Shown here one piece after another: positions 3,001-58,444 of a DNA stretch of 64,000 nucleotides. The stretch is from Selaginella moellendorffii. Taxonomy: Eukaryota > Plantae > Lycopodiophyta. Every line of letters starts with the position of its first letter. Within the stretch, counting starts at the first letter, position 1. Made by a program: the position numbers and the translations under genes. Location of the stretch: contig NW_003314294.1 in NCBI RefSeq assembly GCF_000143415.4, forward strand, positions 1,673,387 through 1,737,386, read 5' to 3'. The notes beneath the pieces were generated by a model, which was not told the origin of the DNA, searched no databases, and was given only the letters and a program-made list of their open reading frames with translations.

Positions 3001-5257
3001 TCACTCCAGTCCCACTTTGCTGCAGGACCAATAACAAGGGCGAGTGTGAAGATGCGGACATTCATCGGTATCTTCTTCTTAGCCATTATCCCATGGATCT
3101 CCCGCATCTCCTTGCCTTTCAATCGAGCCTTCACCTCATTCAAGGCCTTCCAGAACTTGTGATAGGATTCGGAGTCGTAGATCATATAGTGGACTGAAGA
3201 TTCCACCTCCACAAGTCCCACCATTAAGTCAAAGATGGAGCTGACTTCGTCTGCATGAGTGATCTCCTCATTTGTGAAGTCCATCACACAAAAGATGTTC
3301 TTGACCTGCTCATCTCCGCGGGAAACGATGCTCCTCCACCTTTGATCCTCATCCGAATTCACGTATACCCGGTAAGGTTCTCGATAGGCCTCTGCTGCGG
3401 GGTCAAGCTGTTTCTGAAGCCGGCGGTCGACATTCCTCTTAATGAAATTTGGATACTGATCCAACTTCTCAGCTTTACTTTTTGTGGCATCCCGCAGCAG
3501 ATCGATGAACTTGGGGGCCCCCTTCACGTACTCGTCGATGTCTTCATTTGACAACTCCAGCTCTTCCATCATCTCTTGCGTGGTGTCGATGCTCACCCTC
3601 TCCACGGCCACTTGCTCGAAGATCCAATCCTTCAATAGCGCACGAGCTCTCAGAGTCGTGCACAAGTCCTCGTATGTCACAATATGGCCGAGAGTCATTT
3701 TGGTCTTGTTGAAGACTACCTCACCACGTAGAAGAGCATTAGCCACTGTCAGAAGGTCATCGTCGTCTAGAGACCGCGAGAAACGCAAGGCGTTGAGCTT
3801 CAAATCATTGGGCTTCCGGCCGTCCTCCACACCCATTGAGTTTAGCAACTCCCCGTCATGGTACCTCCTCAGCACATCTACCCATTTGTCAAAAACAACT
3901 TTTGTCGCGAGTAGAATGTTATGGATGCTGAGTGTGTCATTGACCCCCAATGTTTTCGAGAGAAGACTCGAGAATTCCTGCAATGGAAATGGCATGAGGC
4001 CACATGCTATGCCACATGCAACGAGGCTTACTTGCCAGGCGCTAGTTGCTAGTGCACGTCCTTGTCCTAGTTTTTGTGGCTTCTTCAGTTGAACCCAAAG
4101 CTTCCGTGTTCGTGCCAATGTCTCGTGTAGACCCGATTTGTAGCACGTTTCTTGCTTGACATTCTGCGCATGGGAGATGTATATGATAGATCGGAGGGGC
4201 GAGTTGCCTTTTATCAGGTGGACAACTCTTGTCTTGAAGACTTTCTTCACCTCCTCACCCACCATAATATCCACAACTATCTCTTGCATCGCCAAGCTAG
4301 AATGTTGCCCGGAGACGGCATAGAACCGGATGTTCTGCTCGTCCAACACCTTCCTATTGATCAAGTCTGGAAACCTCGTCTCGCCCTTCATTGTTCGGTA
4401 GTAGGGGATCACGTCTGCGATGTCGGGTGTTACTGGACTTGCCAGCATCTTCTGCTTCAGTTTCTCCACCCACTCATCAGATACTAGCCTGTGGTTGTAT
4501 TTGCTTTGGATGTCGATGTGGCTCACGTCGATTGTATATACTTTGTTGGAATAGTAATAAGTACTATTATCTGCGACGATTTTTGCTGCCTCTTCTTGCT
4601 CTTTCTGCTCTTTGCGGCTCTTCTTTTTGGTGGGTGTAGTGTTCGAACCCGAGGCAATGGCATCACCGAGTAGCTTCTTTTTTGGAGCAGGAGAGTCGGA
4701 CGTCGGCTTGAGCTTGACCACCCTTTTCTGCTTCGGGGTAGTTTCCAGATCGACCCCCTTCCCCTTCGCTTCGCGAACTGGAGTCACTCTCAACGGCTCA
4801 ATGTTGGAATATAGTTTTTGAACATCGCCGTAGGTGAGGTCCGTGGATTCCATGTGATCTTCATAGACCTGCAGCGTCTTTGAAATTGTGGGCCTCCTGG
4901 ACAACCTCTCCCTAGCTCCCTCTAGGAATTCCTCATAGCCGCTGCCCCCCTCCAAGAAGCCGCTAGGATGTGCAAGGTGGATCTTGAAGGCGGACGCTGT
5001 CTCTACCACAAGTGTCAGTCCATATTCTTGCATGGAACTGCATGGACTGTCTGTCACTTGGATGAGGATCCCCATGCATTCTTTTCTCCCACCATCTGTG
5101 TTGTACAGCCTCAGATCCTCGCCTTCCATCCCGAAAGTCCAACTAGTGAGCTCCTCCCCCTTCTCTGCATCCACATAGACAGTGGCTAGAAGAAGAACGC
5201 AATTCCTCGCCTGTTCAGAAATGCACAACAATTAGAGCTGACAGATGAAAAGCTAGC
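1..5257 (-). pseudogene. Cargo gene, array unit 1 (ParB-like / MTase-like / linker / FCP1-like); gapped and internally deleted
   Basis: Near-identical to 8107-14296. ORFs 2199..5231, 1589..2179, 704..1342 and 498..710 are exons of it. Confidence 0.8.
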
Positions 5258-6099
5258 NNNNNNNNNNNNNNNNNNNNNNNNNNNNNNNNNNNNNNNNNNN
5301 NNNNNNNNNNNNNNNNNNNNNNNNNNNNNNNNNNNNNNNNNNNNNNNNNNNNNNNNNNNNNNNNNNNNNNNNNNNNNNNNNNNNNNNNNNNNNNNNNNNN
5401 NNNNNNNNNNNNNNNNNNNNNNNNNNNNNNNNNNNNNNNNNNNNNNNNNNNNNNNNNNNNNNNNNNNNNNNNNNNNNNNNNNNNNNNNNNNNNNNNNNNN
5501 NNNNNNNNNNNNNNNNNNNNNNNNNNNNNNNNNNNNNNNNNNNNNNNNNNNNNNNNNNNNNNNNNNNNNNNNNNNNNNNNNNNNNNNNNNNNNNNNNNNN
5601 NNNNNNNNNNNNNNNNNNNNNNNNNNNNNNNNNNNNNNNNNNNNNNNNNNNNNNNNNNNNNNNNNNNNNNNNNNNNNNNNNNNNNNNNNNNNNNNNNNNN
5701 NNNNNNNNNNNNNNNNNNNNNNNNNNNNNNNNNNNNNNNNNNNNNNNNNNNNNNNNNNNNNNNNNNNNNNNNNNNNNNNNNNNNNNNNNNNNNNNNNNNN
5801 NNNNNNNNNNNNNNNNNNNNNNNNNNNNNNNNNNNNNNNNNNNNNNNNNNNNNNNNNNNNNNNNNNNNNNNATCATTCCTCAGACTTGAGCGCCACCATT
5901 AATTTCTGGATCGCCACGCACATGCATGCACGTGAAATCCAAAAGAAATCCGCAACGTCATCATTCCTCGGACTGCATGCACGCAAAATCCAAAAGAAAG
6001 ATCATGATTGGGATATAATTTAATACCCTCGCTATATTTATACCATGCATGATTGGATATTCCATGTTGGATGATAAAGAGTTCATCAGATGGGACCAA

Positions 6100-6352
6100 G
6101 TCGAAGATCAAGTCCAAGACCGACTCAGAGACCGAGTTTGAGATAGAGTCCGAAATCGAGTCCGAGGCCGACTCGGGGACCGAGTTCGAGACCGAGTCCG
6201 AGATCCGAAATTGGGTCCGAGACTGAGTCCGAGGTCGAGTCCGAGGTCGGGTCCGAGATTGGGTCCGAGATCGAGTCCGAGATCGAATCCGAGACCAAAT
6301 CCGAAGTCGGATCCAAAATTGAGTCCGAGATCGAGCCAGAGACTAAGTCCAA
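6100..6352. repeat. Degenerate 6-bp tandem repeat (GAGTCC/GAGACC/GAGATC); also at about 15095-15346 and 30150-30495
   Basis: Directly visible periodicity; it produces the spurious SD-rich and PR-rich ORFs. Confidence 0.9.
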
Positions 6353-7194
6353 ATACTAATACGGGTCAAGGGGTGAAAGCCCAAAGCGTGCGTGTCCCAG
6401 GGGAGGGGGGGGTGGGGGGGGGCTGCAGGGGGTTCCAAAAGTATAGTAGGGATAGTGAGGTCTATGAACTAGTTTTGAAGGGACTCTCCAGTGGGGCTTC
6501 CAAACCGACTTGAGGTTGAGACTAGGACCGAGGGGCCTTTGGTGGGAGTGAGTATGGACTTGGGTGGTGTTGGAGGGGCCATCCAAGGAAGTGCTCAAGA
6601 GCAGCTCCCACTCCCGAAAGGGAAACCGGCTACGGTGCTCCCGGCTCATGTGGAGTGGTGCCCCACTTGAGTACCATGCGGCTCATTGGTCCTCGCCCTT
6701 CCTAGGGGCTTGGGCCTTCCTTCGGGATGGAAGTGGGGGGGTAGAGGTACCCATACCGGGCTGTTAGGCCACGGTGTTTCGCCCCGGCGTCCCGAAGCAA
6801 GTGTTGCACTCAAGACTTGGGATTTAGAGGGTCCCATGATCAAGTCTTGTGGTACCAAGGGATGTTAGGAACCTGGAAGCTTGGTGTGCTTGGCTGCTTG
6901 TGCTTGCGGGGAGTGTAGCCGAACCTTAAGTCCAATCTAACCCGGGGAGGGGGATTGGGAGAGATTGGGAATTCGTGGATGGATGGCTAATGCTCTGTTG
7001 CTCGTGTAATGAATAGCTGAAACCAAGTAGAACCAAGTAGGAGTTGGTACCATAGGTGAGAACCTTGGCGAGGGAACTTAGCAAAAGCCAAAGCAGTGTC
7101 GGACGGATAGACGAGGTAAGCTGGCAAATTGGAAAGGAAAAATTTGTGGCTTACAAAAGGATGGCATAGTCGCTGGGTTGCCAGTAAAGAGAGG

Positions 7195-7215
7195 TTTAGG
7201 GTTTAGGGTTTAGGG
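7195..7215 (+). repeat. (TTTAGGG)3 interstitial telomeric tract; duplicated at 16189-16209
   Basis: tttagggtttagggtttaggg read directly. Confidence 0.9.
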
Positions 7216-7666
7216 TTCATCCGGTTGGAAGAAAGTTGCTCTAGAAAAGCTAGTGTGTTGTTGGCAAATGGTCGTAAGGATATCTCGGAAACGGCATGTC
7301 CAAATGAGGTGGTGTCTTCTGCTGTTTATGCACTGTATATGTGTCCGTGGTATGGTGTAAATGTGACCTTAAATGGAGATGTGCACAATGGTGAAAGAAT
7401 GAAAGATGCAAAATGGGCATCTAGAGGTAAGTGCGGGCAATACTATTGGAAGTGATTGGTGATGGAACTATGAGTGTAGATGATATGGAATGGGTGTGGA
7501 AAATGTGTGGGTATATTTATGGTAAGGGAAGGGCCAAAGAACTTGGAACATAGACCGAGCCAAACAAGGAACCTCCATACAAACGGCAATGCAGCCTAAG
7601 CATGAAATCCAAGGCATGGGCTGCGTTTGAGCAGGGAAGGGCGAGAGAAAGCAATTTCAACCTAAA

Positions 7667-10600
7667 GCTCTATTTTGTTAAAGTGGGAATTGTCATTATC
7701 CCACTTGTAAAATAAGGTTTCCAAACCTTTATATAGTATATAAATATAACAAAATTCAACTGTATTGAGGCACATGCCATTTTATTTTAAACAAGGAAAT
7801 GTCTACTCAATCACTTCTCCTCCCCCTGCCACTGCTTTACCTCTCTCTTCTCCTTGTCATCGTCGTCCAATTTCTTTCCATCCTTTTAATATTGGCTCAG
7901 TTGCTCCGAGTCTAGGTGGAGCCCAAGTCCCCATTCAATCTTTACTTTCCCCTTATTAATAAAACAACTTCGTAGACTTCCAATAACATGCTGTAACACT
8001 TCTAGTATAATGCAAATCCTCTCAAAGAATTGTCTTTTAATATTAATACAATGGCATGGAACCCCATGCCATAATAAGTTACATTTTTAAATAAATACAT
8101 GCCATCTCAGACTATTATTTTTTGCCTCCAACGCCTATACAATAATCTTGGAATTTCATCACTCTCCACACTATCAGGATTTAAACCCAATAGTAATGCC
8201 ATCTCTTCTCTAATACGTCCATGCTCATGTTCAGTGGTCGAAGAACCCATTCGGTTGAGCAGATTATGGAGATGCGGATAGTGCTTGGCTAGACAATATA
8301 CATGCCATAAATGATGACTGGTGTCTATCCGATCAAATGGCTTCTGATATACCGTTCTATCTGCCATTTGGTTGATTTCTGCAGCCACCTCTTGGACTGG
8401 CCGGTTCTCTATCACCATCGCTCCAAGCCGTTTTGCAAGGTCCCCCAGAACATATGGTTTCTTCTCCCTAGTTTCCATATTGCAAGAGATGGGATGCACT
8501 GCATATGTGTGCGTGTTCGCTGTAGTTTTAATCGGCGAGTCATCGATGATGAGGATTTCACTTGACCTAGCAGTCTGGTTCATCACTATAGCCTCTGGCT
8601 TGACGAAGATGGGTTTGCTACCCCTCACATGGACCATAGTCAAGCAATCCTCCTACGTTAGGAGAAAGTCAAATGGTAATATTACTCGCGTCTGATCGTG
8701 CATCATCTGTAACAACGTTAATGCATTGTGGCGCATCATGGATGTCCAAACTCCCAATTGCAAATTGAACCCGGCCCTCTATTTTAAGTGTCGCATGGTC
8801 ATTATTAAATCCCGCAGTTTCTCCCGTGTGATTAATGTGAATCTGTTTCTTTTGACCAACTTGCGACCGCAGGCTTTGGAGGGTGCAGTGACATTCGAGG
8901 ACGAGCCACGCTCATGGGAGAAAAGGACACCGTTCAGATCAAAAATGATACAGTACCTTCGCTGTGACTTTGAAATGAAATGCGTCAGCATAAAAAATGG
9001 TACAAGTCAATTTTACCATCTACAATATTAGCAAATGGTGCTCCCGATGGTCGTTGAGAGGGTTTTGGTCGAGGAAACGTGAAGGGCGGAAATACTCTCC
9101 TCTGCAATGTGGGATCAATCGCATCCGATGGCGTGTGGGCACATGCCATTTCAGCTGTAGACTCTGGTACAACTGGCTCAACAGTGGCATGGGGTGGTTC
9201 CGATGGCATGTGATCACACGCCATTTCAGCTGGTGCCTCCGTTGGCAAAGTGGACATGACCGAACAGGCAGCAGGGGCGGTATAGGGAGGTTCCAACGGT
9301 GCGTAGTCAGACGATTGGGCACACGTTGAGTCCGTTGGAAATGAGGATACGACCGGCTCGGCGGCTGGGCCGGCCTCATATGGGTCCAATGGCGCCTGGT
9401 CACCGTCAGTTGGATACGTGGACAAGATTGACTCAGTGGTATGGGCAACATCAAGTGGAGCGTGGTCAGCTTGCTTGGCGTTGATATGGATAGTAGCCTC
9501 CACCAGCTCTGATGACTCTTGCAGGCAAGTAGAGTCCACTGGCAGATCCATATGCATGTCCAAATATCTCCCTTCGATTGAGATGGTATCCTCCCGTGCT
9601 ACTAAAAACAAACTCATTAGCACATTGAATCGACTATACTGTATTTACCATCAACTGCTATTGAGGAACTAGGACCGATATCACTTGGGCGCACTGCTGA
9701 TTCTGAAGGATTGGACATACATTTCGACCCTTGCTTGGCACTATCCTTCCTTGACACTAAAGGCTAGAGTTTGTATCTTAATTCAACTGAATAATCTCTA
9801 CTTACCATTTGCTTTGCGACCTACATGGACAATGTTAGAAATGGTAAAAAGTTAGGAATGGATGTACTATTATTTACCTGATGGTTTGTCTTGTATGACC
9901 TTCCTCCGCTGCTCTTTGGCCACCTCAGGCTGGCCATCGTCGTCATCATCATCGTCGTCGTTATTGTGATCGTCACCATTGTGAGGACCATCCAAGTCCT
10001 TTTCGTCCTCCTCTTCTTCGTCCTCCTCTTCTTTGTCCTCCTCTTCGTCCTTCTGCTCTTCCTGCTCATTATCTTTCTCTGGCTCCTCATCCCCCTCTTG
10101 CATTTCTTCCATAGGCTGCTCAGGCTGGATGGCTTGTTCTTCCAGGACCATCTTGGGAAAATCATCTGGCCGAGTCTCCATCTCAAAATACAAGACATCC
10201 ATAGCCTGTTTTAGTGCGTGACCTAGGACCGTATCCTCACCCGACTGTCTTAACATGGTTTCTGCACGTTCTTGCACCCTTCGAAGACGACGAGATGAGA
10301 AAAACGTGGCCCTGACTTGAAAAACATCCCTCATCCATTGTACCTCTCCATTGAGATTGGGGAAGGGGAGTCCACCATAGGAATCTGAGTCAGGAGGTGG
10401 TGACTGGCTGCTTTCACTCAGCCCTTGATCTGCAATGAATGGCATGAGCACACACGCCATAACCGCGAGGCATTACCTATCATCTTTTCGTTGCCCTTCT
10501 TCCTTTTCGAATCAAACGCCTCTGATCCCGACGACTGTCCAACATGCTTTCGCTTTTTATGACTACTGTTAGTTTGAGCTTGATCTGCAAGAAATGGCAT

Positions 10601-13600
10601 GAGGACCCACGCAATAACCATGACGCTTTATTTCCCGTCCTTGGAGGCTCTGTCATGCCTTCCGCATCCTCAGGTACCTGCTCCTCAATTCCCTTTTGCT
10701 TTCGTTTCTTATGTGCCCGTTCTACAGAAATAGCATGAGGACATACGCGATAAGCACACAAATGCTTTTACCCTTCCTCCTCTGCCCTGGTCGGTTGTCC
10801 ATCTCTTTGTCTACAGCGTCTGAAAGCTGTTTTGCAGGTAGCCTAATTCGAGGTTCACGACGTCTCCTTGGCAATTGAACTGTATATTATTGCATCAACA
10901 CATGCAACATCCCATAATATTTTTAAGTTACCTTTCATAAAGTTTTCCATTGGTTCAACTTGTTCCCCTGAAATACAAACTTAGATAAATGCATGGGGCC
11001 ATATGTCATGATCGTACCTGTTTCGGAACTCTCCTTATCACTCTCTGAGGCCTCCCCCTCCTCCACTGGAGGCACGTTATTCCATTCGATTTCCTCGACA
11101 CGATCTGCAAGAACATTAGTTAATTGCATGGGGCCACACGCCATCAAACCTTCAGGTTCTTGTCGTGAGGTCTGCGCTGCTTGCCCTAGTCTCTTTGGAA
11201 TTTGAGCTGCAAGAAGCAATGGCATGAGAAATCACGTATAACAAAAATGATTGGTACCTCTCGTCCGTTGTACTTGGCTGGTGCTTGCCTGTTTTGCCTT
11301 TGAAGAAGTGTCTCCTGCAAGGAATGGCATGAGACCACACGCCATTGCAAATATAATTTGTACCTCCTTTTTTCCTATTGCTTCTCTGTTTGTCCTTCTT
11401 CGACGCGCCACTAATGCGCTTTTCAGTCCTCGTGTCTGAATATTCACAACGATCTATAATCAAAATGGCGTGAGGCCTCACGTGACCTTACCTTGTGCAG
11501 GTTGTGAGCTCGGCCCAACATGGGTATCTTCAACAGTAGCTGTTAATGCCGTTTCAGCATCTGGGGGTAGCCACGCTCCTGCATACAGAGCTTGTGAGAT
11601 AACATTTAAACTTAAAGTGCGTACTCACCAGGTTCGCAGAGAAGATACTGTTTTTCTTTGGCAACTGTAACTATATGCTCCATTGAAGTCACCTCTTCAA
11701 TGGAGTTTGTCACCGCAACACACGGGACACCCTTGAGTAGTGCGGCTCGAAAGAATAATCCGCCGCAGTTGTACTCGACAACGCATTTGCCCTTGGAGTC
11801 GGAAGCAGGTGACCCACCCGCTATTGTGTTGAAGACCCAACTGAGCATTTCCCATGCTACACCTGGAGCTTTCTCTGGATTCGAAAGCTCCATAGCCGTC
11901 TTCAGTTCCTCAGGCACGGGTAAATTGACCTCCCTCAGATCAATTCGATCGGCCTTGTCAAACGAAGCTGGGAAGTCACTCCAGTCCCACTTTGCTGCAG
12001 GACCAATAACAAGGGCGAGTGTGAAGATGCGGACATTCATCGGTATCTTCTTCTTAGCCATTATCCCATGGATCTCCCGCATCTCCTTGCCTTTCAATCG
12101 AGCCTTCACCTCATTCAAGGCCTTCCAGAACTTGTGATAGGATTCGGAGTCGTAGATCATATAGTGGACTGAAGATTCCACCTCCACAAGTCCCACCATT
12201 AAGTCAAAGATGGAGCTGACTTCGTCTGCATGAGTGATCTCCTCATTTGTGAAGTCCATCACACAAAAGATGTTCTTGACCTGCTCATCTCCGCGGGAAA
12301 CGATGCTCCTCCACCTTTGATCCTCATCCGAATTCACGTATACCCGGTAAGGTTCTCGATAGGCCTCTGCTGCGGGGTCAAGCTGTTTCTGAAGCCGGCG
12401 GTCGACATTCCTCTTAATGAAATTTGGATACTGATCCAACTTCTCAGCTTTACTTTTTGTGGCATCCCGCAGCAGATCGATGAACTTGGGGGCCCCCTTC
12501 ACGTACTCGTCGATGTCTTCATTTGACAACTCCAGCTCTTCCATCATCTCTTGCGTGGTGTCGATGCTCACCCTCTCCACGGCCACTTGCTCGAAGATCC
12601 AATCCTTCAATAGCGCACGAGCTCTCAGAGTCGTGCACAAGTCCTCGTATGTCACAATATGGCCGAGAGTCATTTTGGTCTTGTTGAAGACTACCTCACC
12701 ACGTAGAAGAGCATTAGCCACTGTCAGAAGGTCATCGTCGTCTAGAGACCGCGAGAAACGCAAGGCGTTGAGCTTCAAATCATTGGGCTTCCGGCCGTCC
12801 TCCACACCCATTGAGTTTAGCAACTCCCCGTCATGGTACCTCCTCAGCACATCTACCCATTTGTCAAAAACAACTTTTGTCGCGAGTAGAATGTTATGGA
12901 TGCTGAGTGTGTCATTGACCCCCAATGTTTTCGAGAGAAGACTCGAGAATTCCTGCAATGGAAATGGCATGAGGCCACATGCTATGCCACATGCAACGAG
13001 GCTTACTTGCCAGGCGCTAGTTGCTAGTGCACGTCCTTGTCCTAGTTTTTGTGGCTTCTTCAGTTGAACCCAAAGCTTCCGTGTTCGTGCCAATGTCTCG
13101 TGTAGACCCGATTTGTAGCACGTTTCTTGCTTGACATTCTGCGCATGGGAGATGTATATGATAGATCGGAGGGGCGAGTTGCCTTTTATCAGGTGGACAA
13201 CTCTTGTCTTGAAGACTTTCTTCACCTCCTCACCCACCATAATATCCACAACTATCTCTTGCATCGCCAAGCTAGAATGTTGCCCGGAGACGGCATAGAA
13301 CCGGATGTTCTGCTCGTCCAACACCTTCCTATTGATCAAGTCTGGAAACCTCGTCTCGCCCTTCATTGTTCGGTAGTAGGGGATCACGTCTGCGATGTCG
13401 GGTGTTACTGGACTTGCCAGCATCTTCTGCTTCAGTTTCTCCACCCACTCATCAGATACTAGCCTGTGGTTGTATTTGCTTTGGATGTCGATGTGGCTCA
13501 CGTCGATTGTATATACTTTGTTGGAATAGTAATAAGTACTATTATCTGCGACGATTTTTGCTGCCTCTTCTTGCTCTTTCTGCTCTTTGCGGCTCTTCTT

Positions 13601-15058
13601 TTTGGTGGGTGTAGTGTTCGAACCCGAGGCAATGGCATCACCGAGTAGCTTCTTTTTTGGAGCAGGAGAGTCGGACGTCGGCTTGAGCTTGACCACCCTT
13701 TTCTGCTTCGGGGTAGTTTCCAGATCGACCCCCTTCCCCTTCGCTTCGCGAACTGGAGTCACTCTCAACGGCTCAATGTTGGAATATAGTTTTTGAACAT
13801 CGCCGTAGGTGAGGTCCGTGGATTCCATGTGATCTTCATAGACCTGCAGCGTCTTTGAAATTGTGGGCCTCCTGGACAACCTCTCCCTAGCTCCCTCTAG
13901 GAATTCCTCATAGCCGCTGCCCCCCTCCAAGAAGCCGCTAGGATGTGCAAGGTGGATCTTGAAGGCGGACGCTGTCTCTACCACAAGTGTCAGTCCATAT
14001 TCTTGCATGGAACTGCATGGACTGTCTGTCACTTGGATGAGGATCCCCATGCATTCTTTTCTCCCACCATCTGTGTTGTACAGCCTCAGATCCTCGCCTT
14101 CCATCCCGAAAGTCCAACTGGTGAGCTCCTCCCCCTTCTCTGCATCCACATTGACAGTGGCTGGAAGAAGAACGCAATTCCTCGCCTGTTCAGAAATGCA
14201 CAACAATTAGAGCTGACAGATGAAAAGCTAGCAGCTAGAAATAACGTGAGGCCACACGCCATTCACCACTGCATTAGATGTCTTGAGGCTGCATCCTAAG
14301 ATGGCGTGAGGCTACATGCCATCTGTAACCGGACTGCACTCGAGAGCCCAATTGGTGCATGCCAATGTTGCTACTGAATGGCATGTGGCCTGATGCCATT
14401 TTCTACTTGGCCTAAAAGACTTACCATTTGAAGCCAAATGGAGGCGTGACAATCGAGGCTGGACTCGCTGGCGAATGTGCACTGTGTGTGTAGCGGATCG
14501 TAGCAGCAAGGCTACTCTGCCACTTACAGTTGGAGAGTGGCGCTGAAATCTCCTGGGACGCCAAGTGGGCTGCGTGTGGGTGGCGGAGTGGGCGGTGGAG
14601 TTGGTGGCAAAGTTACAAACTGGGTGTGTATTGAAGTGGACGCCGATGCACACGAGCGTGATGCGAGCGCGAGTGTGATGCAAGTGTGAGTGGACGCCGA
14701 TGCATATGAAAAACCTGTAGAGAAGGTAGATGAGCGCGAATGTGAGCGTGATCGTGAGTGGGAGCGCGATGCGAGCGCGAGTGTGCGAGCACGAGTACGA
14801 AGCAAAATGCAAAACCTAACCTCACACGCGCGAAATGTCACGACAGTTGGTAATCCCGCAACGTCATCATTCCTCGGACTTGGGTGCCACCATTAATTTC
14901 TGGATCGCCACGCACATGCATGCACGTGAAATCCAAAAGAAATCCGCAACGTCATCATTCCTCGGACTGCATGCACGCAAAATCCAAAAGAAAGATCATG
15001 ATTGGGATATAATTTAATACCCTCGCTATATTTATACCATGCATGATTGGATATTCCA
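7667..15058. mobile_element. Left arm of Sola-like TIR transposon (array unit 2), TIR at 7667-7688
   Basis: GCTCTATTTTGTTAAAGTGGGA at 7667; near-identical to 16661-24052. Confidence 0.9.
8107..14296 (-). pseudogene. Multi-exon cargo gene, unit 2: ParB/Srx-like + degenerate beta-class amino-MTase fold + charged microexon linker + FCP1/NIF HAD-like domain
   Basis: Main exon 14185-11629 with an in-frame 54-nt intron (12953-13006). It is followed by a run of phase-1 introns whose exons join in frame (one donor reads GA). The last exon has FDLNGVL, GVWTS, KPIFVK and IIDDSPIK motifs but two TAG stops. The 5' end and the join to the last exon are not resolved. Confidence 0.75.
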
Positions 15059-16660: not shown

Positions 16661-17100
16661 GCTCTATTTTGTTAAAGTGGGAATTGTCATTATCCCACTT
16701 GTAAAATAAGGTTTCCAAACCTTTATATAGTATATAAATATAACAAAATTCAACTGTATTGAGGCACATGCCATTTTATTTTAAACAAGGAAATGTCTAC
16801 TCAATCACTTCTCCTCCCCCTGCCACTGCTTTACCTCTCTCTTCTCCTTGTCATCGTCGTCCAATTTCTTTCCATCCTTTTAATATTGGCTCAGTTGCTC
16901 CGAGTCTAGGTGGAGCCCAAGTCCCCATTCAATCTTTACTTTCCCCTTATTAATAAAACAACTTCGTAGACTTCCAATAACATGCTGTAACACTTCTAGT
17001 ATAATGCAAATCCTCTCAAAGAATTGTCTTTTAATATTAATACAATGGCATGGAACCCCATGCCATAATAAGTTACATTTTTAAATAAATACATGCCATC

Positions 17101-20100
17101 TCAGACTATTATTTTTTGCCTCCAACGCCTATACAATAATCTTGGAATTTCATCACTCTCCACACTATCAGGATTTAAACCCAATAGTAATGCCATCTCT
17201 TCTCTAATACGTCCATGCTCATGTTCAGTGGTCGAAGAACCCATTCGGTTGAGCAGATTATGGAGATGCGGATAGTGCTTGGCTAGACAATATACATGCC
17301 ATAAATGATGACTGGTGTCTATCCGATCAAATGGCTTCTGATATACCGTTCTATCTGCCATTTGGTTGATTTCTGCAGCCACCTCTTGGACTGGCCGGTT
17401 CTCTATCACCATCGCTCCAAGCCGTTTTGCAAGGTCCCCCAGAACATATGGTTTCTTCTCCCTAGTTTCCATATTGCAAGAGATGGGATGCACTGCATAT
17501 GTGTGCGTGTTCGCTGTAGTTTTAATCGGCGAGTCATCGATGATGAGGATTTCACTTGACCTAGCAGTCTGGTTCATCACTATAGCCTCTGGCTTGACGA
17601 AGATGGGTTTGCTACCCCTCACATGGACCATAGTCAAGCAATCCTCCTACGTTAGGAGAAAGTCAAATGGTAATATTACTCGCGTCTGATCGTGCATCAT
17701 CTGTAACAACGTTAATGCATTGTGGCGCATCATGGATGTCCAAACTCCCAATTGCAAATTGAACCCGGCCCTCTATTTTAAGTGTCGCATGGTCATTATT
17801 AAATCCCGCAGTTTCTCCCGTGTGATTAATGTGAATCTGTTTCTTTTGACCAACTTGCGACCGCAGGCTTTGGAGGGTGCAGTGACATTCGAGGACGAGC
17901 CACGCTCATGGGAGAAAAGGACACCGTTCAGATCAAAAATGATACAGTACCTTCGCTGTGACTTTGAAATGAAATGCGTCAGCATAAAAAATGGTACAAG
18001 TCAATTTTACCATCTACAATATTAGCAAATGGTGCTCCCGATGGTCGTTGAGAGGGTTTTGGTCGAGGAAACGTGAAGGGCGGAAATACTCTCCTCTGCA
18101 ATGTGGGATCAATCGCATCCGATGGCGTGTGGGCACATGCCATTTCAGCTGTAGACTCTGGTACAACTGGCTCAACAGTGGCATGGGGTGGTTCCGATGG
18201 CATGTGATCACACGCCATTTCAGCTGGTGCCTCCGTTGGCAAAGTGGACATGACCGAACAGGCAGCAGGGGCGGTATAGGGAGGTTCCAACGGTGCGTAG
18301 TCAGACGATTGGGCACACGTTGAGTCCGTTGGAAATGAGGATACGACCGGCTCGGCGGCTGGGCCGGCCTCATATGGGTCCAATGGCGCCTGGTCACCGT
18401 CAGTTGGATACGTGGACAAGATTGACTCAGTGGTATGGGCAACATCAAGTGGAGCGTGGTCAGCTTGCTTGGCGTTGATATGGATAGTAGCCTCCACCAG
18501 CTCTGATGACTCTTGCAGGCAAGTAGAGTCCACTGGCAGATCCATATGCATGTCCAAATATCTCCCTTCGATTGAGATGGTATCCTCCCGTGCTACTAAA
18601 AACAAACTCATTAGCACATTGAATCGACTATACTGTATTTACCATCAACTGCTATTGAGGAACTAGGACCGATATCACTTGGGCGCACTGCTGATTCTGA
18701 AGGATTGGACATACATTTCGACCCTTGCTTGGCACTATCCTTCCTTGACACTAAAGGCTAGAGTTTGTATCTTAATTCAACTGAATAATCTCTACTTACC
18801 ATTTGCTTTGCGACCTACATGGACAATGTTAGAAATGGTAAAAAGTTAGGAATGGATGTACTATTATTTACCTGATGGTTTGTCTTGTATGACCTTCCTC
18901 CGCTGCTCTTTGGCCACCTCAGGCTGGCCATCGTCGTCATCATCATCGTCGTCGTTATTGTGATCGTCACCATTGTGAGGACCATCCAAGTCCTTTTCGT
19001 CCTCCTCTTCTTCGTCCTCCTCTTCTTTGTCCTCCTCTTCGTCCTTCTGCTCTTCCTGCTCATTATCTTTCTCTGGCTCCTCATCCCCCTCTTGCATTTC
19101 TTCCATAGGCTGCTCAGGCTGGATGGCTTGTTCTTCCAGGACCATCTTGGGAAAATCATCTGGCCGAGTCTCCATCTCAAAATACAAGACATCCATAGCC
19201 TGTTTTAGTGCGTGACCTAGGACCGTATCCTCACCCGACTGTCTTAACATGGTTTCTGCACGTTCTTGCACCCTTCGAAGACGACGAGATGAGAAAAACG
19301 TGGCCCTGACTTGAAAAACATCCCTCATCCATTGTACCTCTCCATTGAGATTGGGGAAGGGGAGTCCACCATAGGAATCTGAGTCAGGAGGTGGTGACTG
19401 GCTGCTTTCACTCAGCCCTTGATCTGCAATGAATGGCATGAGCACACACGCCATAACCGCGAGGCATTACCTATCATCTTTTCGTTGCCCTTCTTCCTTT
19501 TCGAATCAAACGCCTCTGATCCCGACGACTGTCCAACATGCTTTCGCTTTTTATGACTACTGTTAGTTTGAGCTTGATCTGCAAGAAATGGCATGAGGAC
19601 CCACGCAATAACCATGACGCTTTATTTCCCGTCCTTGGAGGCTCTGTCATGCCTTCCGCATCCTCAGGTACCTGCTCCTCAATTCCCTTTTGCTTTCGTT
19701 TCTTATGTGCCCGTTCTACAGAAATAGCATGAGGACATACGCGATAAGCACACAAATGCTTTTACCCTTCCTCCTCTGCCCTGGTCGGTTGTCCATCTCT
19801 TTGTCTACAGCGTCTGAAAGCTGTTTTGCAGGTAGCCTAATTCGAGGTTCACGACGTCTCCTTGGCAATTGAACTGTATATTATTGCATCAACACATGCA
19901 ACATCCCATAATATTTTTAAGTTACCTTTCATAAAGTTTTCCATTGGTTCAACTTGTTCCCCTGAAATACAAACTTAGATAAATGCATGGGGCCATATGT
20001 CATGATCGTACCTGTTTCGGAACTCTCCTTATCACTCTCTGAGGCCTCCCCCTCCTCCACTGGAGGCACGTTATTCCATTCGATTTCCTCGACACGATCT

Positions 20101-23100
20101 GCAAGAACATTAGTTAATTGCATGGGGCCACACGCCATCAAACCTTCAGGTTCTTGTCGTGAGGTCTGCGCTGCTTGCCCTAGTCTCTTTGGAATTTGAG
20201 CTGCAAGAAGCAATGGCATGAGAAATCACGTATAACAAAAATGATTGGTACCTCTCGTCCGTTGTACTTGGCTGGTGCTTGCCTGTTTTGCCTTTGAAGA
20301 AGTGTCTCCTGCAAGGAATGGCATGAGACCACACGCCATTGCAAATATAATTTGTACCTCCTTTTTTCCTATTGCTTCTCTGTTTGTCCTTCTTCGACGC
20401 GCCACTAATGCGCTTTTCAGTCCTCGTGTCTGAATATTCACAACGATCTATAATCAAAATGGCGTGAGGCCTCACGTGACCTTACCTTGTGCAGGTTGTG
20501 AGCTCGGCCCAACATGGGTATCTTCAACAGTAGCTGTTAACGCCGTTTCAGCATCTGGGGGTAGCCACGCTCCTGCATACAGAGCTTGTGAGATAACATT
20601 TAAACTTAAAGTGCGTACTCACCAGGTTCGCAGAGAAGATACTGTTTTTCTTTGGCAACTGTAACTATATGCTCCATTGAAGTCACCTCTTCAATGGAGT
20701 TTGTCACCGCAACACACGGGACACCCTTGAGTAGTGCGGCTCGAAAGAATAATCCGCCGCAGTTGTACTCGACAACGCATTTGCCCTTGGAGTCGGAAGC
20801 AGGTGACCCACCCGCTATTGTGTTGAAGACCCAACTGAGCATTTCCCATGCTACACCTGGAGCTTTCTCTGGATTCGAAAGCTCCATAGCCGTCTTCAGT
20901 TCCTCAGGCACGGGTAAATTGACCTCCCTCAGATCAATTCGATCGGCCTTGTCGAACGAAGCTGGGAAGTCACTCCAGTCCTACTTTGCTGCAGGACCAA
21001 TAACAAGGGCGAGTGTGAAGATGCGGACATTCATCGGTATCTTCTTCTTAGCCATTATCCCATGGATCTCCCGCATCTCCTTGCCTTTCAATCGAGCCTT
21101 CACCTCATTCAAGGCCTTCCAGAACTTGTGATAGGATTCGGAGTCGTAGATCATATAGTGGACTGAAGATTCCACCTCCACAAGTCCCACCATTAAGTCA
21201 AAGATGGAGCTGACTTCGTCTGCATGAGTGATCTCCTCATTTGTGAAGTCCATCACACAAAAGATGTTCTTGACCTGCTCATCTCCGCGGGAAACGATGC
21301 TCCTCCACCTTTGATCCTCATCCGAATTCACGTATACCCGGTAAGGTTCTCGATAGGCCTCTGCTGCGGGGTCAAGCTGTTTCTGAAGCCGGCGGTCGAC
21401 ATTCCTCTTAATGAAATTTGGATACTGATCCAACTTCTCAGCTTTACTTTTCGTGGCATCCCGCAGCAGATCGATGAACTTGGGGGCCCCCTTCACGTAC
21501 TCGTCGATGTCTTCATTTGACAACTCCAGCTCTTCCATCATCTCTTGCGTGGTGTCGATGCTCACCCTCTCCACGGCCACTTGCTCGAAGATCCAATCCT
21601 TCAATAGCGCACGAGCTCTCAGAGTCGTGCACAAGTCCTCGTATGTCACAATATGGCCGAGAGTCATTTTGGTCTTGTTGAAGACTACCTCACCACGTAG
21701 AAGAGCATTAGCCACTGTCAGAAGGTCATCGTCGTCTAGAGACCGCGAGAAACGCAAGGCGTTGAGCTTCAAATCATTGGGCTTCCGGCCGTCCTCCACA
21801 CCCATTGAGTTTAGCAACTCCCCGTCATGGTACCTCCTCAGCACATCTACCCATTTGTCAAAAACAACTTTTGTCGCGAGTAGAATGTTATGGATGCTGA
21901 GTGTGTCATTGACCCCCAATGTTTTCGAGAGAAGACTCGAGAATTCCTGCAATGGAAATGGCATGAGGCCACATGCTATGCCACATGCAACGAGGCTTAC
22001 TTGCCAGGCGCTAGTTGCTAGTGCACGTCCTTGTCCTGGTTTTTGTGGCTTCTTCAGTTGAACCCAGAGCTTCCGTGTTTGTGCCAATGTCTCGTGCAGA
22101 CCCGATTTGTAGCACGTTTCTTGCTTGACATTCTGCGCGTGGGAGATGTATATGATAGATCGGAGGGGCGAGTTGCCTTTTATCAGGTGGACAACTCTTG
22201 TCTTGAAGACTTTCTTCACCTCCTCGCCCACCATAATATCCACAACTATCTCTTGCATCGCCAAGCTAGAATGCTGCCCGGAGACGGCATAGAACCGGAT
22301 GTTCTGCTCGTCCAACACCTTCCTATTGATCAAGTCTGGAAACCTCGTCTCGCCCTTCATTGTTCGGTAGTAGGGGATCACGTCTGCGATGTCGGGTGTT
22401 ACTGGACTTGCCAGCATCTTCTGCTTCAGTTTCTCCACCCACTCATCAGATACTAGCCTGTGGTTGTATTTGCTTTGGATGTCGATGTGGCTCACGTCGA
22501 TTGTATATACTTTGTTGGAATAGTAATAAGTACTATTATCTGCGACGATTTTTGCTGCCTCTTCTTGCTCTTTCTGCTCTTTGCGGCTCTTCTTTTTGGT
22601 GGGTGTAGTGTTCGAACCCGAGGCAATGGCATCACCGAGTAGCTTCTTTTTTGGAGCAGGAGAGTCGGACGTCGGCTTGAGCTTGACCACCCTTTTCTGC
22701 TTCGGGGTAGTTTCCAGATCGACCCCCTTCCCCTTCGCTTCGCGAACTGGAGTCACTCTCAACGGCTCAATGTTGGAATATAGTTTTTGAACATCGCCGT
22801 AGGTGAGGTCCGTGGATTCCATGTGATCTTCATAGACCTGCAGCGTCTTTGAAATTGTGGGCCTCCTGGACAACCTCTCCCTAGCTCCCTCTAGGAATTC
22901 CTCATAGCCGCTGCCCCCCTCCAAGAAGCCGCTAGGATGTGCAAGGTGGATCTTGAAGGCGGACGCTGTCTCTACCACAAGTGCCAGTCCATATTCTTGC
23001 ATGGAACTGCATGGAGTGTCTGTCACTTGGATGAGGATCCCCATGCATTCTTTTCTCCCACCATCTGTGTTGTACAGCCTCAGATCCTCGCCTTCCATCC

Positions 23101-23290
23101 CGAAAGTCCAACTGGTGAGCTCCTCCCCCTTCTCTGCATCCACATTGACAGTGGCTGGAAGAAGAACGCAATTCCTCGCCTGTTCAGAAATGCACAACAA
23201 TTAGAGCTGACAGATGAAAAGCTAGCAGCTAGAAATAACGTGAGGCCACACGCCATTCACCACTGCATTAGATGTCTTGAGGCTGCATCC
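17101..23290 (-). pseudogene. Cargo gene, unit 3; extra TGG>TAG stop at 20981-20983
   Basis: ORFs 20981..23200 and 20606..20911 are the split 864-aa reading frame; downstream exons as in unit 2. Confidence 0.8.
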
Positions 23291-24119
23291 TAAGATGGCG
23301 TGAGGCTACATGCCATCTGTAACCGGACTGCACTCGAGAGCCCAATTGGTGCATGCCAATGTTGCTACTGAATGGCATGTGGCCTGATGCCATTTTCTAC
23401 TTGGCCTAAAAGACTTACCATTTGAAGCCAAATGGAGGCGTGACAATCGAGGCTGGACTCGCTGGCGAATGTGCACTGTGTGTGTAGCGGATCGTAGCAG
23501 CAAGGCTACTCTGCCACTTACAGTTGGAGAGTGGCGCTGAAATCTCCTGGGACGCCAAGTGGGCTGCGTGTGGGTGGCGGAGTGGGCGGCGGAGTTGGTG
23601 GCAAAGTTACAAACTGGGTGTGTCTTGAAGTGGACGCCGATGCACACGAGCGTGATGCGAGCGCGAGTGTGATGCAAGTGTGAGTGGACGCCGATGCACA
23701 TGAAAAACCTGTAGAGAAGGTAGATGAGCGCGAATGTGAGCGTGATCGTGAGTGGGAGCGCGATGCGAGCGCGAGTGTGCGAGCACGAGTACGAAGCAAA
23801 ATGCAAAACCTAACCTCACACGCACGAAATGTCACGACAGTTGGTAATCCCGCAATGTCATCATTCCTCGGACTTGGGTGCCACCATTAATTTCTGGATC
23901 GCCACGCACATGCATGCACGTGAAATCCAAAAGAAATCCGCAACGTCATCATTCCTCGGACTACATGCACGCAAAATCCAAAAGAAAGATCATGATTGGG
24001 ATATAATTTAATACCCTCGCTATATTTATACCATGCATGATTGGATATTCCAAAGCATCTTGTATTTCAAAAAATGCCAGATGTTCAGCTAAATAAAGGA
24101 CATGATGTGAAAAAGTTCA

Positions 24120-24140
24120 CCCTAAACCCTAAACCCTAAA
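24120..24140 (-). repeat. (CCCTAAA)3 telomeric/telobox tract between the divergent genes
   Basis: ccctaaaccctaaaccctaaa; equivalent position in copy B at 54267-54299. Confidence 0.9.
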
Positions 24141-25311
24141 CATGTGGCAAATGCTACGTGAAGAAAGATGCCCTTTCTGGGCAAATGCTGTAAGAGGCAG
24201 ATGCCAAGCAGATGTATCTCAAGCTAGTGAAGGGGACAAACGAGAGTTAGCTATAAACATGACGGGATGCAAATAGATTACTAGGCTGGTCCTGCGAAAA
24301 TCAAAAACCATAATTGAAAACATTGAAAATGCAAAAAGAAAGGTTTATAATATTTTTGAATTTTAAGCAACCAAAGGAATGTAAGTAGGGCATGTGTTTG
24401 TAAGTTTAAAAATGCCTCAACCACTTAAATTCCCAAGTAAATAAAGCTGTTTCTATTTTTGGTACAGGTAAACTTTATAGCGTGTGGGCTCATGCAATTT
24501 TGAACCCAAAAATGCACCAAAAAATGCTCGACTAGCATTATTCTTTGAATGGCGTGTGGCCTTATATTGCCATAAATGGACGTACACACACAGCATAATT
24601 ATTCCTTTACACGGCGAATAATCTTGGCGCGGATCGCTGACATGGCATGGCAAAGTTCGAATCACTGACATGGCACAGCTGGATCGAGGCAAGGACATGA
24701 TGTGACAAAGTTCAACGTCCGACAGCAAAGTCTAGAAGCTACTCAGTTTGAAATTTGTCAGAGGAATCATAAGATCTGGTTTGTCAGAGGATTTGATGTG
24801 ACGTTCAAGCGTGTGTTATTTTTGAATTCTCGAACTCATTCCTAGGTCTATCATTTTTGTGTGTTGTGTTCTTGGTTCCGCTGAGCACAGTGAGCGCTGC
24901 TTGTGTAAGCGGCGTTGTGAGCTGTGGTTTATGCGTCTACGAGCGGTTGCGGCATTGCGAGCGCCATTGCGAGCGGCAGTTTATGCAAGTGGCAGTTTGT
25001 GCGAGCGGCGCTACGAGCAGTTGCGGTGGTGCGAGCGGCGCTACGGTACCACTTCATGCCATCTTGGGGCTTGCAAGTTCATCACTAGCATATTGCCAAT
25101 AATTTCTTTACCTGCCTGTAGCTGTGTGTTTATCTAGATGGCATGAGGCCTCATGCCAATTTTGTGAATACGAAATTTCACGTGGGTGTCAATAGCATGT
25201 TTGAATAATGGCATGTGGCCTCATGCTATTGAGGTTGTTTGGTATGTTATGATTTAGGCCATTCTCCAATCATTTTTTGTATGGTCTTAACTTCTTTTCT
25301 ACACTTTCAGA

Positions 25312-27092
25312 ATGGCCTTCAAGGTTGGGGAAAAAGTTTACATTTTGAATGGTGGGAAGAGAGTTGCAAAAGGGACCCTTGTGTCTATGGATCAGAACTT
25401 TGTTATACACTGTCAAAGGCTTGGGGAAGGCAATGCTGTTGTATCAGTAGAGACTGTCTTCGATGGGAATGTGGTCGCTATTGAACGAGGAGAGATGGTC
25501 GTCGGGGTAAATGTTGTTGTTGCCTTGAAAAATCTTCAGAAGAAAGCAGATGTTGGGGACAGCGCAAGTGTGACGCATGTTCCCTTTGTGGATCTTAAGA
25601 ACCGTGCTACATGGATTCAGGCAAAGGTGTTTCTAAACAACCCCAAGGGGGAGGTGGTAGTTGAGGGCTTAGCCACAGTTGTCGATCCAAGAGATGTGGT
25701 TGCTAATCAAGAATTGGGCCGGGATGATATTGGAGTTGCGATTTTAAAGGTTGTTGACACAGAAGAAAACAGTCTGACTATTGGAAGCATTGTGCGGTGG
25801 AAATTGAGGCACTTAGTGTTTGAGAATGTGAGGCCTCATGCCATTCCGATGAGGCTAGTCGCCCGGTGAATGCACAGCCTCATCCAAATGAAGCAGAATC
25901 TCAAGGAAGTTCCTGCGGCCAATGTGGCCTTCCACCCCATCTTCTACTCCAAACAGACAATGCTGGCAGTGAGAACAAAAACATGTACGTCTTCGCGTAC
26001 TTGGCGATGCTTGTTGCCAAAGGCATATTTGAAACGGTTACACTTGGCTTTCTCATGGTTGGGCACACTCATGAAGACATCGATGCCATGTTCAGTCACC
26101 TGGCAGAGTCCCTCCGGCGATCCAATGTCCTCACCCTCCCACAACTCTACGATGAATTCCAAAATTGCATCAAAGGCACTGTTGAAGCTGCACTTGTGAC
26201 AGAGGTTCTAGACTTTAAGGGGTTTGTAAGAGGCTACATCAGGGACGGATCCGAAACGCTGATTGGCCACTCCAAGCCTCTTCAGTTTCATTTCAGCATG
26301 CGTGACGGTGCTCCAGTGATGAGGTACAAGATGAGAGAATGGGACACAGTGTGGCTGCCAGTGGACGGCATTGAACTCTTCAAGAGAGATCCCATAACTG
26401 GGGAACCTATGATTCCTCAAGGTTCCCCACTGCCGATGCACCCGGATGGACTCAAAGACCAGGAAAGTATAGTGGCCGGGATTAGACAGCATATTGCCTT
26501 CTGGAAGAGGGGGTTGGTGTTTGGTGGAGAATCCTATTTTCAGAGGTGTAAGCCTTTGCTCGAATACTGGGAGAAGATTATATCTGCTATCCAAAATGGG
26601 CCGGTTGTATATGAAGAATTGGAAGAGTCCTTTTGGCCAGAACCCAAAGCACCAGATAGTAGCGGAACAATGTCCTCTGGAAATGCAGTGACAGATAACG
26701 ATGTTGAGGATCACTATTGTGGGCCGAGGAACAAGAAGCCGGATTCAGCATTCAATCCAGTACAGGTCTGCAAAGGAATGGTCGTGCTTGTCAGACCCAG
26801 TAATAAAAAACAAATGATATGGGTGGGGCACTGCATCACTGATGCAGAGGAGGACGCAAAAACTAACTCCTTCAATGTAACTGTGGAGTGGTTCAAGCCA
26901 AGTTCCGGATATACGAAGGATTGCCTAGAAAAGAGATGGGTGCTGAATCCAAGGGATCCCAGCATGAGCATATCGGTGAATAATGTTGTGCATGGTTGGA
27001 TGCGGAAGCAGAGTGCCACCATCACCTTGCCAGACCATGCAAGAGATGCTGCAAGAGCATTCATAACCCGGGTTCAAGGTGAGATTCATTAA
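25312..27092 (+). pseudogene. Sola-like (DUF7869-type) transposase with a 1,288-bp internal deletion
   Basis: Retains LQTDNAGSENKN and FLMVGHTHEDID. Comparison with copy B shows loss of the Cys/HTH region and the first catalytic Asp (IIHDKMDQ), joined at a GTGA microhomology near 25827-25830. Confidence 0.85.
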
Positions 27093-27731
27093 TATTCCTT
27101 TACTAAGTTTCTAATGTATTTTATTTCAAGGTGAACAATCCGAATCTGAATCAGAGGAGGCATGATGGCATGTGGCCTTACGCCATTCCTAGGTGAGATG
27201 ATACAAATAACAAGTATAAATTCTTAGTTGTTCTAGCAAATCTTACTTAAAGTTCAAGGTGAACAAGCTGAATATGAATTCATCGGATTGTTATAACAAA
27301 TTGCGAGGTGATGGCATGAGGCGATACGCCATTTGAGAGTGGTAGCCATTCCTATATGAGGTGAGTGAAATATTTATTAGAAATACCTCATTCAATTGTG
27401 CACTTCTAAGTCTTGGTCCACTCAGTACTGTTTGCATGTTTCTATTTTAATTCTTTCTCTAAAATGTTATTTAGCATGTGGCTTCATGCCATTGCTCTCC
27501 ACAATCATGCATTGAATTTTTCTATCCTTGCATAATACTTCTCTAAATATATAGCATGTGCGCACATGTGATATGGTTCATTAGGCCTGAAGGTCACTGC
27601 GCTAGTCACCATGCCCCAGATATGTTTAGCCCCTGGACAAAAAACATATAATTTCACGTCATTTTCAAATACTTGAAAATTTGTACCTAGTCCCATTTTA
27701 CTGAATAAATCCCACTTTAACAAAATAGAGC

Positions 27732-48600: not shown

Positions 48601-49866
48601 GCTTAGACTATTACTCAGACACAGTTTGAAAGTAGATTTATCCAGCATTTAAATCTTTTAAAGCTCTATTTCGTTAAAGTGGGATTTATTCAGTAAAATG
48701 GGACTAGGTACAAATTTTCAAGTATTTGAAAATGACGTGAAATTATATGTTTTTTGTCCAGGGGCTAGACATATCTGGGGCATGGTGACTAGCGCGGTGA
48801 CCTTATGTCCAGACTGAGTCCATCTAGTTGTATAATAAATCTCATTGTCAAGGTGAACAAGCCGAATCTGAAGCTAAAGAAGAGCGATGGCATGCGCGCA
48901 CACACTATTTGTTTGTTCATTGAGCGTGTGGTGAGCTTTCCAAGATGAACATCATTCCTATTAGCCAGACATATAACTTAATGGTGAGAACATTTAGATA
49001 TTATTCAATGTTATCTTTTTCTAACGAATCTAATTGTGAAGGTGTAGCAAGAGGCATTGCTAGTCTGGAGAAGTCATTTAACTCATTTGACCCTTAGTGT
49101 ATTTTCATGAAACTAAATAACATTCATATTATTAAGGAATTTCTCTAGTACCTTTTTTTTACGACATAGAGGCTTGCATTTCTTTCAAAGGTGATTTAGT
49201 AAAAGGCCTGAGGGCACATGCCATTCTATTTCTCAGACCGGTATTAAGATATACTAGTGCAAAGGGAAAAAGGTATTTGGTGATCAAGTAAATGGCATGA
49301 GGGCACACGCCATTATAAGCCTAAGCGCTAGTGGACACCTCCTTTTTGGTACTCTCAGCGGTACTATCATCCTTCTCCGGGTCAGTTGTTTTGCTTTGGA
49401 TTGTTGTCTCTGACGTTACTGGGGCGTTCTCGATAGTTGTTAATGTTGCCGTTTGTTCAGAAAAATGATCACCTGGAGTATAGTACGGGGAGTTTGGAAG
49501 ACTTATATATTCTACATCTTCACCTATCTCCTTCTCCGTCTCCTTTTCTGCCTCACTTACAGATTTTGTGCTTGCCATGAGAACGCTCTTCACCCTAAAA
49601 TATGGAGTTCGTTGTGTTATAAAAGGAAACCAACACACACGCTGCAAGGGAATGATGGTACATAAAGCACGTAAGCCCACAATATGGGTTTATGTGCCAT
49701 TAATATGGGCCACACGCCATATTATTAGATTTATGCACGTGTGATTGGTAAATGCATATGTCACATCATCTTTGTTTTACCTCACACACTATATCAAGCC
49801 TCCTTTGATTCAGATTCGGATTGTTCACCTTGAAATAAAATACATTAGAAACTTTGTAAAGGAATA

Positions 49867-52800: not shown

Positions 52801-52935
52801 TGATACAGCAGCATTGCCTTCCCCAAGCCTTTCACAGTGTATAACAAAGTTCCGATCCATAGACACAAGGGTCCCTTTTGCAACTCTCTTCCCACCATTC
52901 AAAATGTAAACCTTTTCCCCAACCCTGAAGGCCAT
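49867..52935 (-). pseudogene. Near-intact ~1,022-codon Sola-like DDD transposase with one premature TGA (52045-52047)
   Basis: ORFs 52045..52935 and 49867..51876 are in one frame and the gap between them is open. Motifs: CCKRRCC, VCMKAWRIIYGV, HGN, FSKCDEC, IIHDKMDQ, LQTDNAGSENKN, GHTHEDVD. Splice acceptor just before the ATG. Confidence 0.88.
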
Positions 52936-54266: not shown

Positions 54267-54299
54267 TTTAGGGTTTAGGGTTTAGGGTTTAGGGTTTAG
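54267..54299 (+). repeat. (TTTAGGG)4.7 telomeric/telobox tract
   Basis: Read directly. Confidence 0.9.
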
Positions 54300-58442: not shown

Positions 58443-58444
58443 TT

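Follow-up and report, generated by a model that had tools for sequence, protein, structure and literature searches.

Among the closest described systems, element Sola1-1_Ec32 of Ectocarpus carries a ParB-methyltransferase accessory gene for which self-binding and self-modification have been proposed (PMC12477816), the red-algal Plavaka elements encode the ParB-like accessory protein PAG3 with inverted repeats as its proposed target (bioRxiv 10.1101/2025.02.11.637652), and ParB-HTH methyltransferases occur in chlorophytes (PMC4738411). VANDAL transposons are Mutator elements whose 9-bp motif is not palindromic and is repeated in tandem in one orientation (PMC5735166); for them, demethylation by the accessory protein VANC has been demonstrated (PMC5735166; PMC10398659), and they are called the only proven case of self-modification in one of the two algal papers (PMC12477816; bioRxiv 2025.02.11.637652). 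Here we analyze a 64,000-nucleotide stretch of the genome of the lycophyte Selaginella moellendorffii (contig NW_003314294.1, positions 1,673,387 to 1,737,386, forward strand; hereafter the window), which contains a DNA transposon bounded by terminal inverted repeats (TIRs). The element, complete as copy A (16661-27731), encodes a transposase and a divergent cargo gene, and each copy carries about 24 examples of a 22-bp palindrome. On balance, our data slightly favour the view that this palindrome is a family-specific, parS-like site to which the ParB-like protein that the cargo gene is modelled to encode binds as a dimer.

Like Ectocarpus Sola1-1, the Selaginella element is a large DNA transposon with an accessory gene inside the TIRs on the strand opposite the transposase, whose predicted product combines ParB-like and N4C/N6A methyltransferase parts; compared by description, it differs in its defined 22-bp site, its land-plant host, its degenerate catalytic motif and its long intron-rich tail (PMC12477816). 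It shares with Plavaka PAG3 the presence of a ParB-like protein and inverted repeats in one element, whereas the Plavaka system has an EnSpm-type transposase, a 2OG-oxygenase effector and tandem arrays adjoining the gene, and the sites of the present element are dispersed singly in introns and loops of both genes (bioRxiv 10.1101/2025.02.11.637652). As in VANDAL/VANC, a family-specific motif is enriched in introns and non-coding DNA and the accessory gene has a variable exon-intron structure, but the Selaginella site is palindromic, 22 bp long and free of same-orientation tandem repeats, and VANC is not described as ParB-like in the accessible portions of the two papers (PMC5735166; PMC10398659). 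Spm TnpA and other transposase-based regulators likewise combine family-specific clustered motifs with an element-encoded reader, but their motifs are terminal and non-palindromic and the reader is derived from a transposase (bioRxiv 10.64898/2026.08.24.746577).

The full site reads ATGGCRTG-WGSSCW-CAYGCCAT. Scanning for its arms (ATGGCRTG-N6-CAYGCCAT, at mismatch thresholds of 2, 3 or 4) returned 49 matches with at most two mismatches in the whole window, against a mean of 0.07 in 100 shuffles. Copy A and the inverted copy B (48663..64000, minus strand) hold 17 each, and the remaining 15 lie in a tandem pair of partial copies (1..15058), each corresponding to the left 7.4 kb of copy A, and so are not independent of it. 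The original prediction that the motif is enriched inside the element was borne out: with at most three mismatches, 20 sites lie within copy A (11,074 bp) and none within 27,384 bp outside the element, and with at most four the counts are 24 and 5. A 22-position matrix found 24 sites in copy A, 18 in the left part of copy B and none in 27733-48662, in agreement with the claim that 28-48 kb is free of copies; the long terminal repeat (LTR) retrotransposon that interrupts the cargo gene of copy B (57297-63750) gave a single weak match at 61477. The coordinates listed earlier fit the arm pattern at 31 of 32 places (at most four mismatches, within 1 bp), and all 12 sites rated as good have no more than one mismatch, whereas position 24549 holds only a half-site plus spacer (six mismatches). 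The sites are spread through both genes rather than being subterminal and are unrelated to the 22-bp TIR, again as predicted, and within the window their flanks are mostly unrelated and no tandem array contains them. The recurring "MACGLMPF" peptides of the open reading frame track are mostly intron read-through and not protein. Single exact matches in viral contigs (62 in number) were rejected as what looks like chance background.

This confinement bears on the possibility that a host transcription factor binds the palindrome, the element having gathered sites for cell-type-specific expression. Three sites do lie in the predicted first intron of each gene (the cargo gene in copy A, the transposase gene in copy B) and further ones lie between the genes, yet none occurs in the 20,930 bp of neighbouring DNA, the palindromes of related transposons (see below) are unrelated to this one, and 22 bp is long for the site of a plant transcription factor. 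We regard a host reader as quite improbable.

The base composition of the motif was examined in 31 non-redundant sites, equal to 62 half-sites, comprising 23 of the 24 sites of copy A and eight found only in copy B (a deletion remnant at 25823, the B orthologues and duplicates were excluded). Arm positions hold 0.7-1.9 bits and the flanks about zero, apart from 0.4 bits at one adjacent base. Of the 62 half-sites, 56 have G/C at spacer position 10/13 (1.48 bits, level with the arm positions), although the sites were chosen on the arms alone and the spacer played no part in their selection. The central GSSC is therefore conserved, contrary to the original claim of a spacer that varies freely. 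Position 5 is C in 60 of the 62 half-sites, and positions 5-6 read CA in 38, CG in 21 and TG in only one; CpG decay by itself should yield TG as frequently as CA, and so does not alone explain the pattern. The R at position 6 and the W at position 9 are unlinked (p 0.38). Among 44 departures from the consensus, 41 are one-sided and none is compensatory, which argues for bases of DNA read by a protein and not for a selected hairpin stem. A hairpin would be helped by the 15 of 31 sites that read A..C on the plus strand and so form a G-U pair in a minus-strand transcript, but positions 9/14 are able to pair in just 9 of 31 sites and Rfam gave no match. The earlier proposal of a binding site for a dimeric protein thus keeps the support of base-specific conservation and missing compensatory changes, and loses the argument from a free spacer.

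When copy A is compared with copy B, substitutions affect 3 of 176 bases in motifs and 90 of 2,053 in the rest of the non-coding DNA (p 0.055); leaving out the R/Y positions, a post hoc choice, brings the motif count to 1 of 160 (p 0.008). This lower rate counts against the palindromes being a functionless, neutral by-product of local duplications, as do the conservation of the 22 bases within flanks at background information and the different sites that A and B carry in their non-alignable 3' regions. Some sites do lie in duplicated blocks (19433/19588; 54773-55146), which is what a neutral origin would lead one to expect, but it is the least probable of the explanations that we considered.

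The cargo gene (17101..23421, minus strand, divergent from the transposase gene) is predicted from structure models to encode a ParB N-terminal domain, a helical DNA-binding region and an amino-methyltransferase fold, followed by a long low-complexity region. The modelled N-domain superimposes on ParB with Z 11.4 and a root-mean-square deviation (rmsd) of 2.0 over 94 residues; its structural matches are ParB, Noc, PadC and KorB, with PadC and KorB ranking top among 48,161 chains, and the alignments to the Noc-DNA and KorB-DNA structures, at an rmsd of about 9 over 185 and 194 residues, extend into the DNA-binding parts, where ParB clamps carry a helix-turn-helix domain. There are five viral matches at E below 0.001, of which the three named ones are ParB-type, and in the Atlas the protein neighbours clusters of Streptophyta (0.97, 0.93) and then a phage ParB_N + N6_N4_Mtase protein (0.79, a lead only). 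Bacterial ParB/parS, Noc/NBS and KorB/OB systems work by palindrome binding followed by sliding, and the match of the cargo model to this palindrome-binding family supports the cargo protein as the reader of the palindrome. The modelled ParB fold and the several dispersed palindromes on the replicon that encodes it are features shared with those bacterial systems; GQHS in place of GxRR, the longer site, the fused methyltransferase fold, the lack of ParA and the setting in eukaryotic chromatin set the element apart from them.

The C-terminal domain is better seen in the Selaginella homologue P0080 (23-26% identical), which matches M1.HpyAVI, M.PvuII, N4CMT and CcrM (Z 7.3-9.1) and whose top five matches are all amino-DNA methyltransferases (Z 8.1-9.1), than in the model of the cargo itself, where methyltransferase matches are weak (Z up to 5.6). 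Canonical amino-methyltransferases carry the motifs (D/N/S)PP(Y/F) and FxGxG. Here the corresponding positions are degenerate (DFTN, DLRR, DSAN or DATT, and EYNCGG, EYGCGG or DINTGG), so that the domain looks catalytically dead from its sequence and more likely reads or shields DNA than writes N4-methylcytosine or N6-methyladenine. A full HMMER search gave 13 weak matches, and the homologues that could be named come from Selaginella and Calypogeia (P0072 and P0075 were omitted as low-complexity or unrelated); intact homologues are just 18-28% identical to each other. Word-based searches recovered no homologue of the cargo, sequence searches of Pfam, PHROGs and the PDB gave it no name, and its helical region had no usable match in the Atlas. 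Phage tblastn matches were rejected as chance only. The last part of the cargo gene (17101-17964) holds the motifs DLNGVL and IIDDSP and one stop, with no Pfam match; we take these motifs to be NIF/FCP1-type HAD phosphatase-like.

In a model with 15 introns, the cargo frame is open from the ATG at 23421 to 18011 except for a stop at codon 716, which is specific to copy A (W in the tandem copy). All predicted introns from the third onward are in phase 1, one begins with GA instead of GT in copy A, and after 18011 the model breaks down, leaving the last part of the gene without a defined exon junction. Intron 1 (23180..23418, minus strand) holds three sites (23235, 23295 and 23372), a 54-nt intron (21947..22000, minus strand) holds the site at 21958 and corresponds to an exact gap in P0080, and eight of nine 38-52-nt introns that follow each other in a run (19424..20485, minus strand) carry one each (20459, 20318, 20213, 20117, 19982, 19724, 19588 and 19433). 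The other two sites of the gene, 18122 and 18197 (18122..18218), are exonic in a low-complexity coding region, and two more, 17045 and the degenerate 16753 (16753..17066), lie downstream. Predicted introns make up 13% of the positions and hold 12 of the 14 cargo-gene sites (p 2e-9), a figure to be read with the fact that they were drawn with the site positions known. The earlier proposal had overlooked this placement, as well as the overlap of sites with the likely branch point.

In 7 of the 9 small motif-bearing introns the site presents its own CTCAY at -15 to -19, judged against the branch-point consensus, and the palindrome likely supplies the branch point there, going by sequence; the other two have the site farther upstream, with the reading CCCCAT, and a branch-like sequence of their own after it. 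Such numbers invite the idea that the motif acts at the RNA level, as a hairpin or splicing signal, or that it was left by small insertions which created the introns. Against it, ordinary branch-like sequence stands at -15 to -19 in 4 of 5 motif-free predicted introns, many sites lie in exons, between the genes or downstream of them, the intron at 21947-22000 is by its position older than this family, and the flanks of the nine small introns agree on average at only 7.2 of 23 positions. With the pairing data given above, we hold an RNA-level role to be very improbable, a little more so than a host factor. A 38-nt stretch (23486-23524) lying upstream of where the cargo gene starts attracts RNA reads in the hundreds, and we presume their loose ends to come from the 3' region of large-subunit ribosomal RNA (Rfam gave no match); the stretch is possibly a ribosomal RNA fragment captured by the element.

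We compared 36 loci with related transposases, using 62 viral loci as controls. At least four independent copies of some gapped palindrome were present in 10 of the 36 and in none of the controls, with the reservation that shuffles of long (20-kb) AT-rich loci sometimes attain four or five copies. Locus L001 has seven copies of TTGGCCATATGGCCAA against at most two in 20 shuffles; GGCTCAAAC-N4-GTTTGAGCC is common to L002, L003, L004 and L006 (2, 2, 4 and 1 copies); and ATYTRGTGGCCACYARAT, a pattern derived from the same AT-rich loci in which it was counted, occurs in 3-12 copies in 15 of 22 such loci (about 8 of them distinct) and in neither the viral loci nor the window. Family-specific palindromes thus appear, from these sequences, to be a trait of this transposon group. 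Five related loci (L001:5169, L002:4428, L005:2127, L007:3619 and 3663, L009:4028) have a second palindrome, GGTGTT-N4-AACACC, directly after the transposase; it is absent from the window. At L034:3941-4354, downstream of another related transposase, eight copies of GGCGCGTCAYGCGCC lie in a 57-bp tandem array. At L020:4800-5700 and L029:100-1000 (minus strand) a decayed K/E-rich frame, not recognised as ParB, runs divergently from the transposase.

The main alternative has the palindromes bound by the transposase, or by one of its isoforms, in synapsis or in TnpA-like self-activation, the ParB cargo being a passenger. Transposases can serve as sequence-specific regulators (bioRxiv 2026.08.24.746577), the N-terminus of this one has a weak TNP1/EN/SPM match (E 0.03; 7e-4 in the related protein P0006), palindromes accompany DUF7869 transposases at loci without a detected ParB gene, and at L020 they are clustered in arrays flanking the transposase on both sides. 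On the other hand, sites lie throughout both genes and are neither subterminal nor related to the TIR, TnpA motifs are terminal and non-palindromic (bioRxiv 2026.08.24.746577), and the element encodes a protein modelled as a member of a palindrome-binding family. We judge this alternative unlikely, while treating it as a serious competitor.

Several observations weigh against the cargo protein as the reader of the palindrome, besides the way in which its introns were drawn. None of the 36 related transposase loci, which are short or decayed, has a detectable ParB cargo (14 were rescanned), and such absence at loci with palindromes favours the transposase as the reader, as a weak test. The GxRR motif of ParB is replaced by SGQHS, invariant in 8 of 8 sequences, where true ParBs have G-H-R-R in 14 of 14, which makes sliding as a cytidine triphosphate clamp doubtful. 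Profile-profile comparison with a 14-sequence ParB alignment gave a probability below 1% (the profiles being shallow), and the confidence of the structure models is modest (mean predicted local distance difference test scores of 60 and 66). Three raw RNA runs, with almost no coverage and no joints, contain no spliced read. CpG retention is no higher near the sites (0.64, 0.61, 0.68 and 0.62 by distance, in coding DNA).

The transposase of copy B (49867..52935, minus strand, with one in-frame stop at 52045) matches DUF7869 (E 2e-42, Pfam), and no MULE family is among its Pfam matches. Its counterpart in copy A (25312..27092, plus strand) lacks 1,288 bp that are present in B by alignment, and the junction of this deletion falls within site 51115 of B. 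The conserved motifs HDKMDQ, Q(T/L/M)DN and GHTHED(I/V)D are ones that we take to be Sola-like, and the transposase is likely of Sola type; its named relatives come from Riccia and marine animals, and the closer relatives are about 40% identical. The Sola superfamily is defined by a DDD-type transposase, TIRs of 11-1124 bp and a 4-bp target site duplication (PMC10741241; PMC5751038). The identical 22-bp TIRs of copy A (16661..16682, plus; 27710..27731, minus, matching the end of copy B at 48663) are within that range, and no 4-bp duplication was found, since the flanks TAAA and ATCA differ, the left one lying in a tandem duplication. The coding sequence of the copy B transposase has sites 51115 and 51172 in a loop which an alignment of 16 sequences shows to be hypervariable, and the predicted intron in the 5' untranslated region holds two sites in copy A (25138 and 25208; 25138..25229) and three in copy B (52937-53246). 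Between the divergent genes are 24477 and the half-site 24549 (24477..24570), and downstream of the transposase are 27165, 27311, 27471 and 27551 (27165..27572), a region unalignable to B, which has sites of its own at 48887, 49203 and 49292.

The two copies differ at palindromes in other ways. Two A/B deletion junctions, among 10 listed indels, fall inside palindromes (B 51115 and 53186, corresponding to 25827/25828 and 25054/25055 in A), and A/B homology ends at site 27165 (position 27166); from the sequences, palindromes may be break-prone. Run X1 departs from the window at 80 places in 16600-27800, and in 65 of these the window has T where the run has C, or A where the run has G, motif R/Y positions 18202 and 23311 included; copy A has thus likely accumulated C-to-T changes. 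Over the whole element the CpG ratio is 0.69-0.71, on a par with 0.67 in the young LTR insert. Copy B runs off the window and its far end lies beyond it. On the left, 1-24052 is a near-identical (99.6-99.9%) tandem triplication with a period of 8,994 bp and N gaps, each unit a 1.6-kb LTR-like piece joined to the left 7.4 kb of the element, which could be a recent duplication or an assembly artefact. Short telomere-like TTTAGGG runs occur at 24124-24141 and 54266-54299, in the intergenic region of the element, and at 16187-16211 in the LTR-like piece. Beyond the right TIR, 28047-28292 resembles a less degenerate N6_N4_Mtase fragment (E 0.005, below cut-off), perhaps the relic of another ParB-methyltransferase element.

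If the cargo protein is the reader, its dimer would recognise the palindrome as ParB recognises parS, acting in trans on its own family, and after loading at these sites would coat or open its own element, while the methyltransferase-like domain would read or shield DNA. Self-recognition would then be joined to VANC-like anti-silencing, a role that we suggest by analogy with VANC and the algal proposals, and a palindrome of its own for each family would provide family specificity. The sites are positioned where coding is unharmed, in predicted introns, in the hypervariable loop and in non-coding DNA, and the tiny introns may host the palindrome since its CTCAY doubles as a branch point. In its widest form, that Sola-like transposons of land plants use a borrowed ParB/parS system with family-matched readers, micro-intron sites, spreading against silencing and a pseudo-methyltransferase as reader or shield, we offer the idea as tentative and less likely than its core. 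ParB-methyltransferase cargo of transposons was already known from algae; the defined site, the intron placement and the land-plant setting appear new, in that the literature searched held no land-plant case, defined site or branch-point overlap, though Repbase, the Iyer 2011 chapter and the supplementary files of the algal studies may add to this. The element offers an exact candidate site, a protein to match it and, in related families, natural variants, which makes the self-binding and self-modification proposed for algae directly testable. A DNA site that doubles as a branch point would show that recognition sites can be packed into genes without coding cost, and orthogonal protein-site pairs working on plant chromatin would be potential targeting tools.

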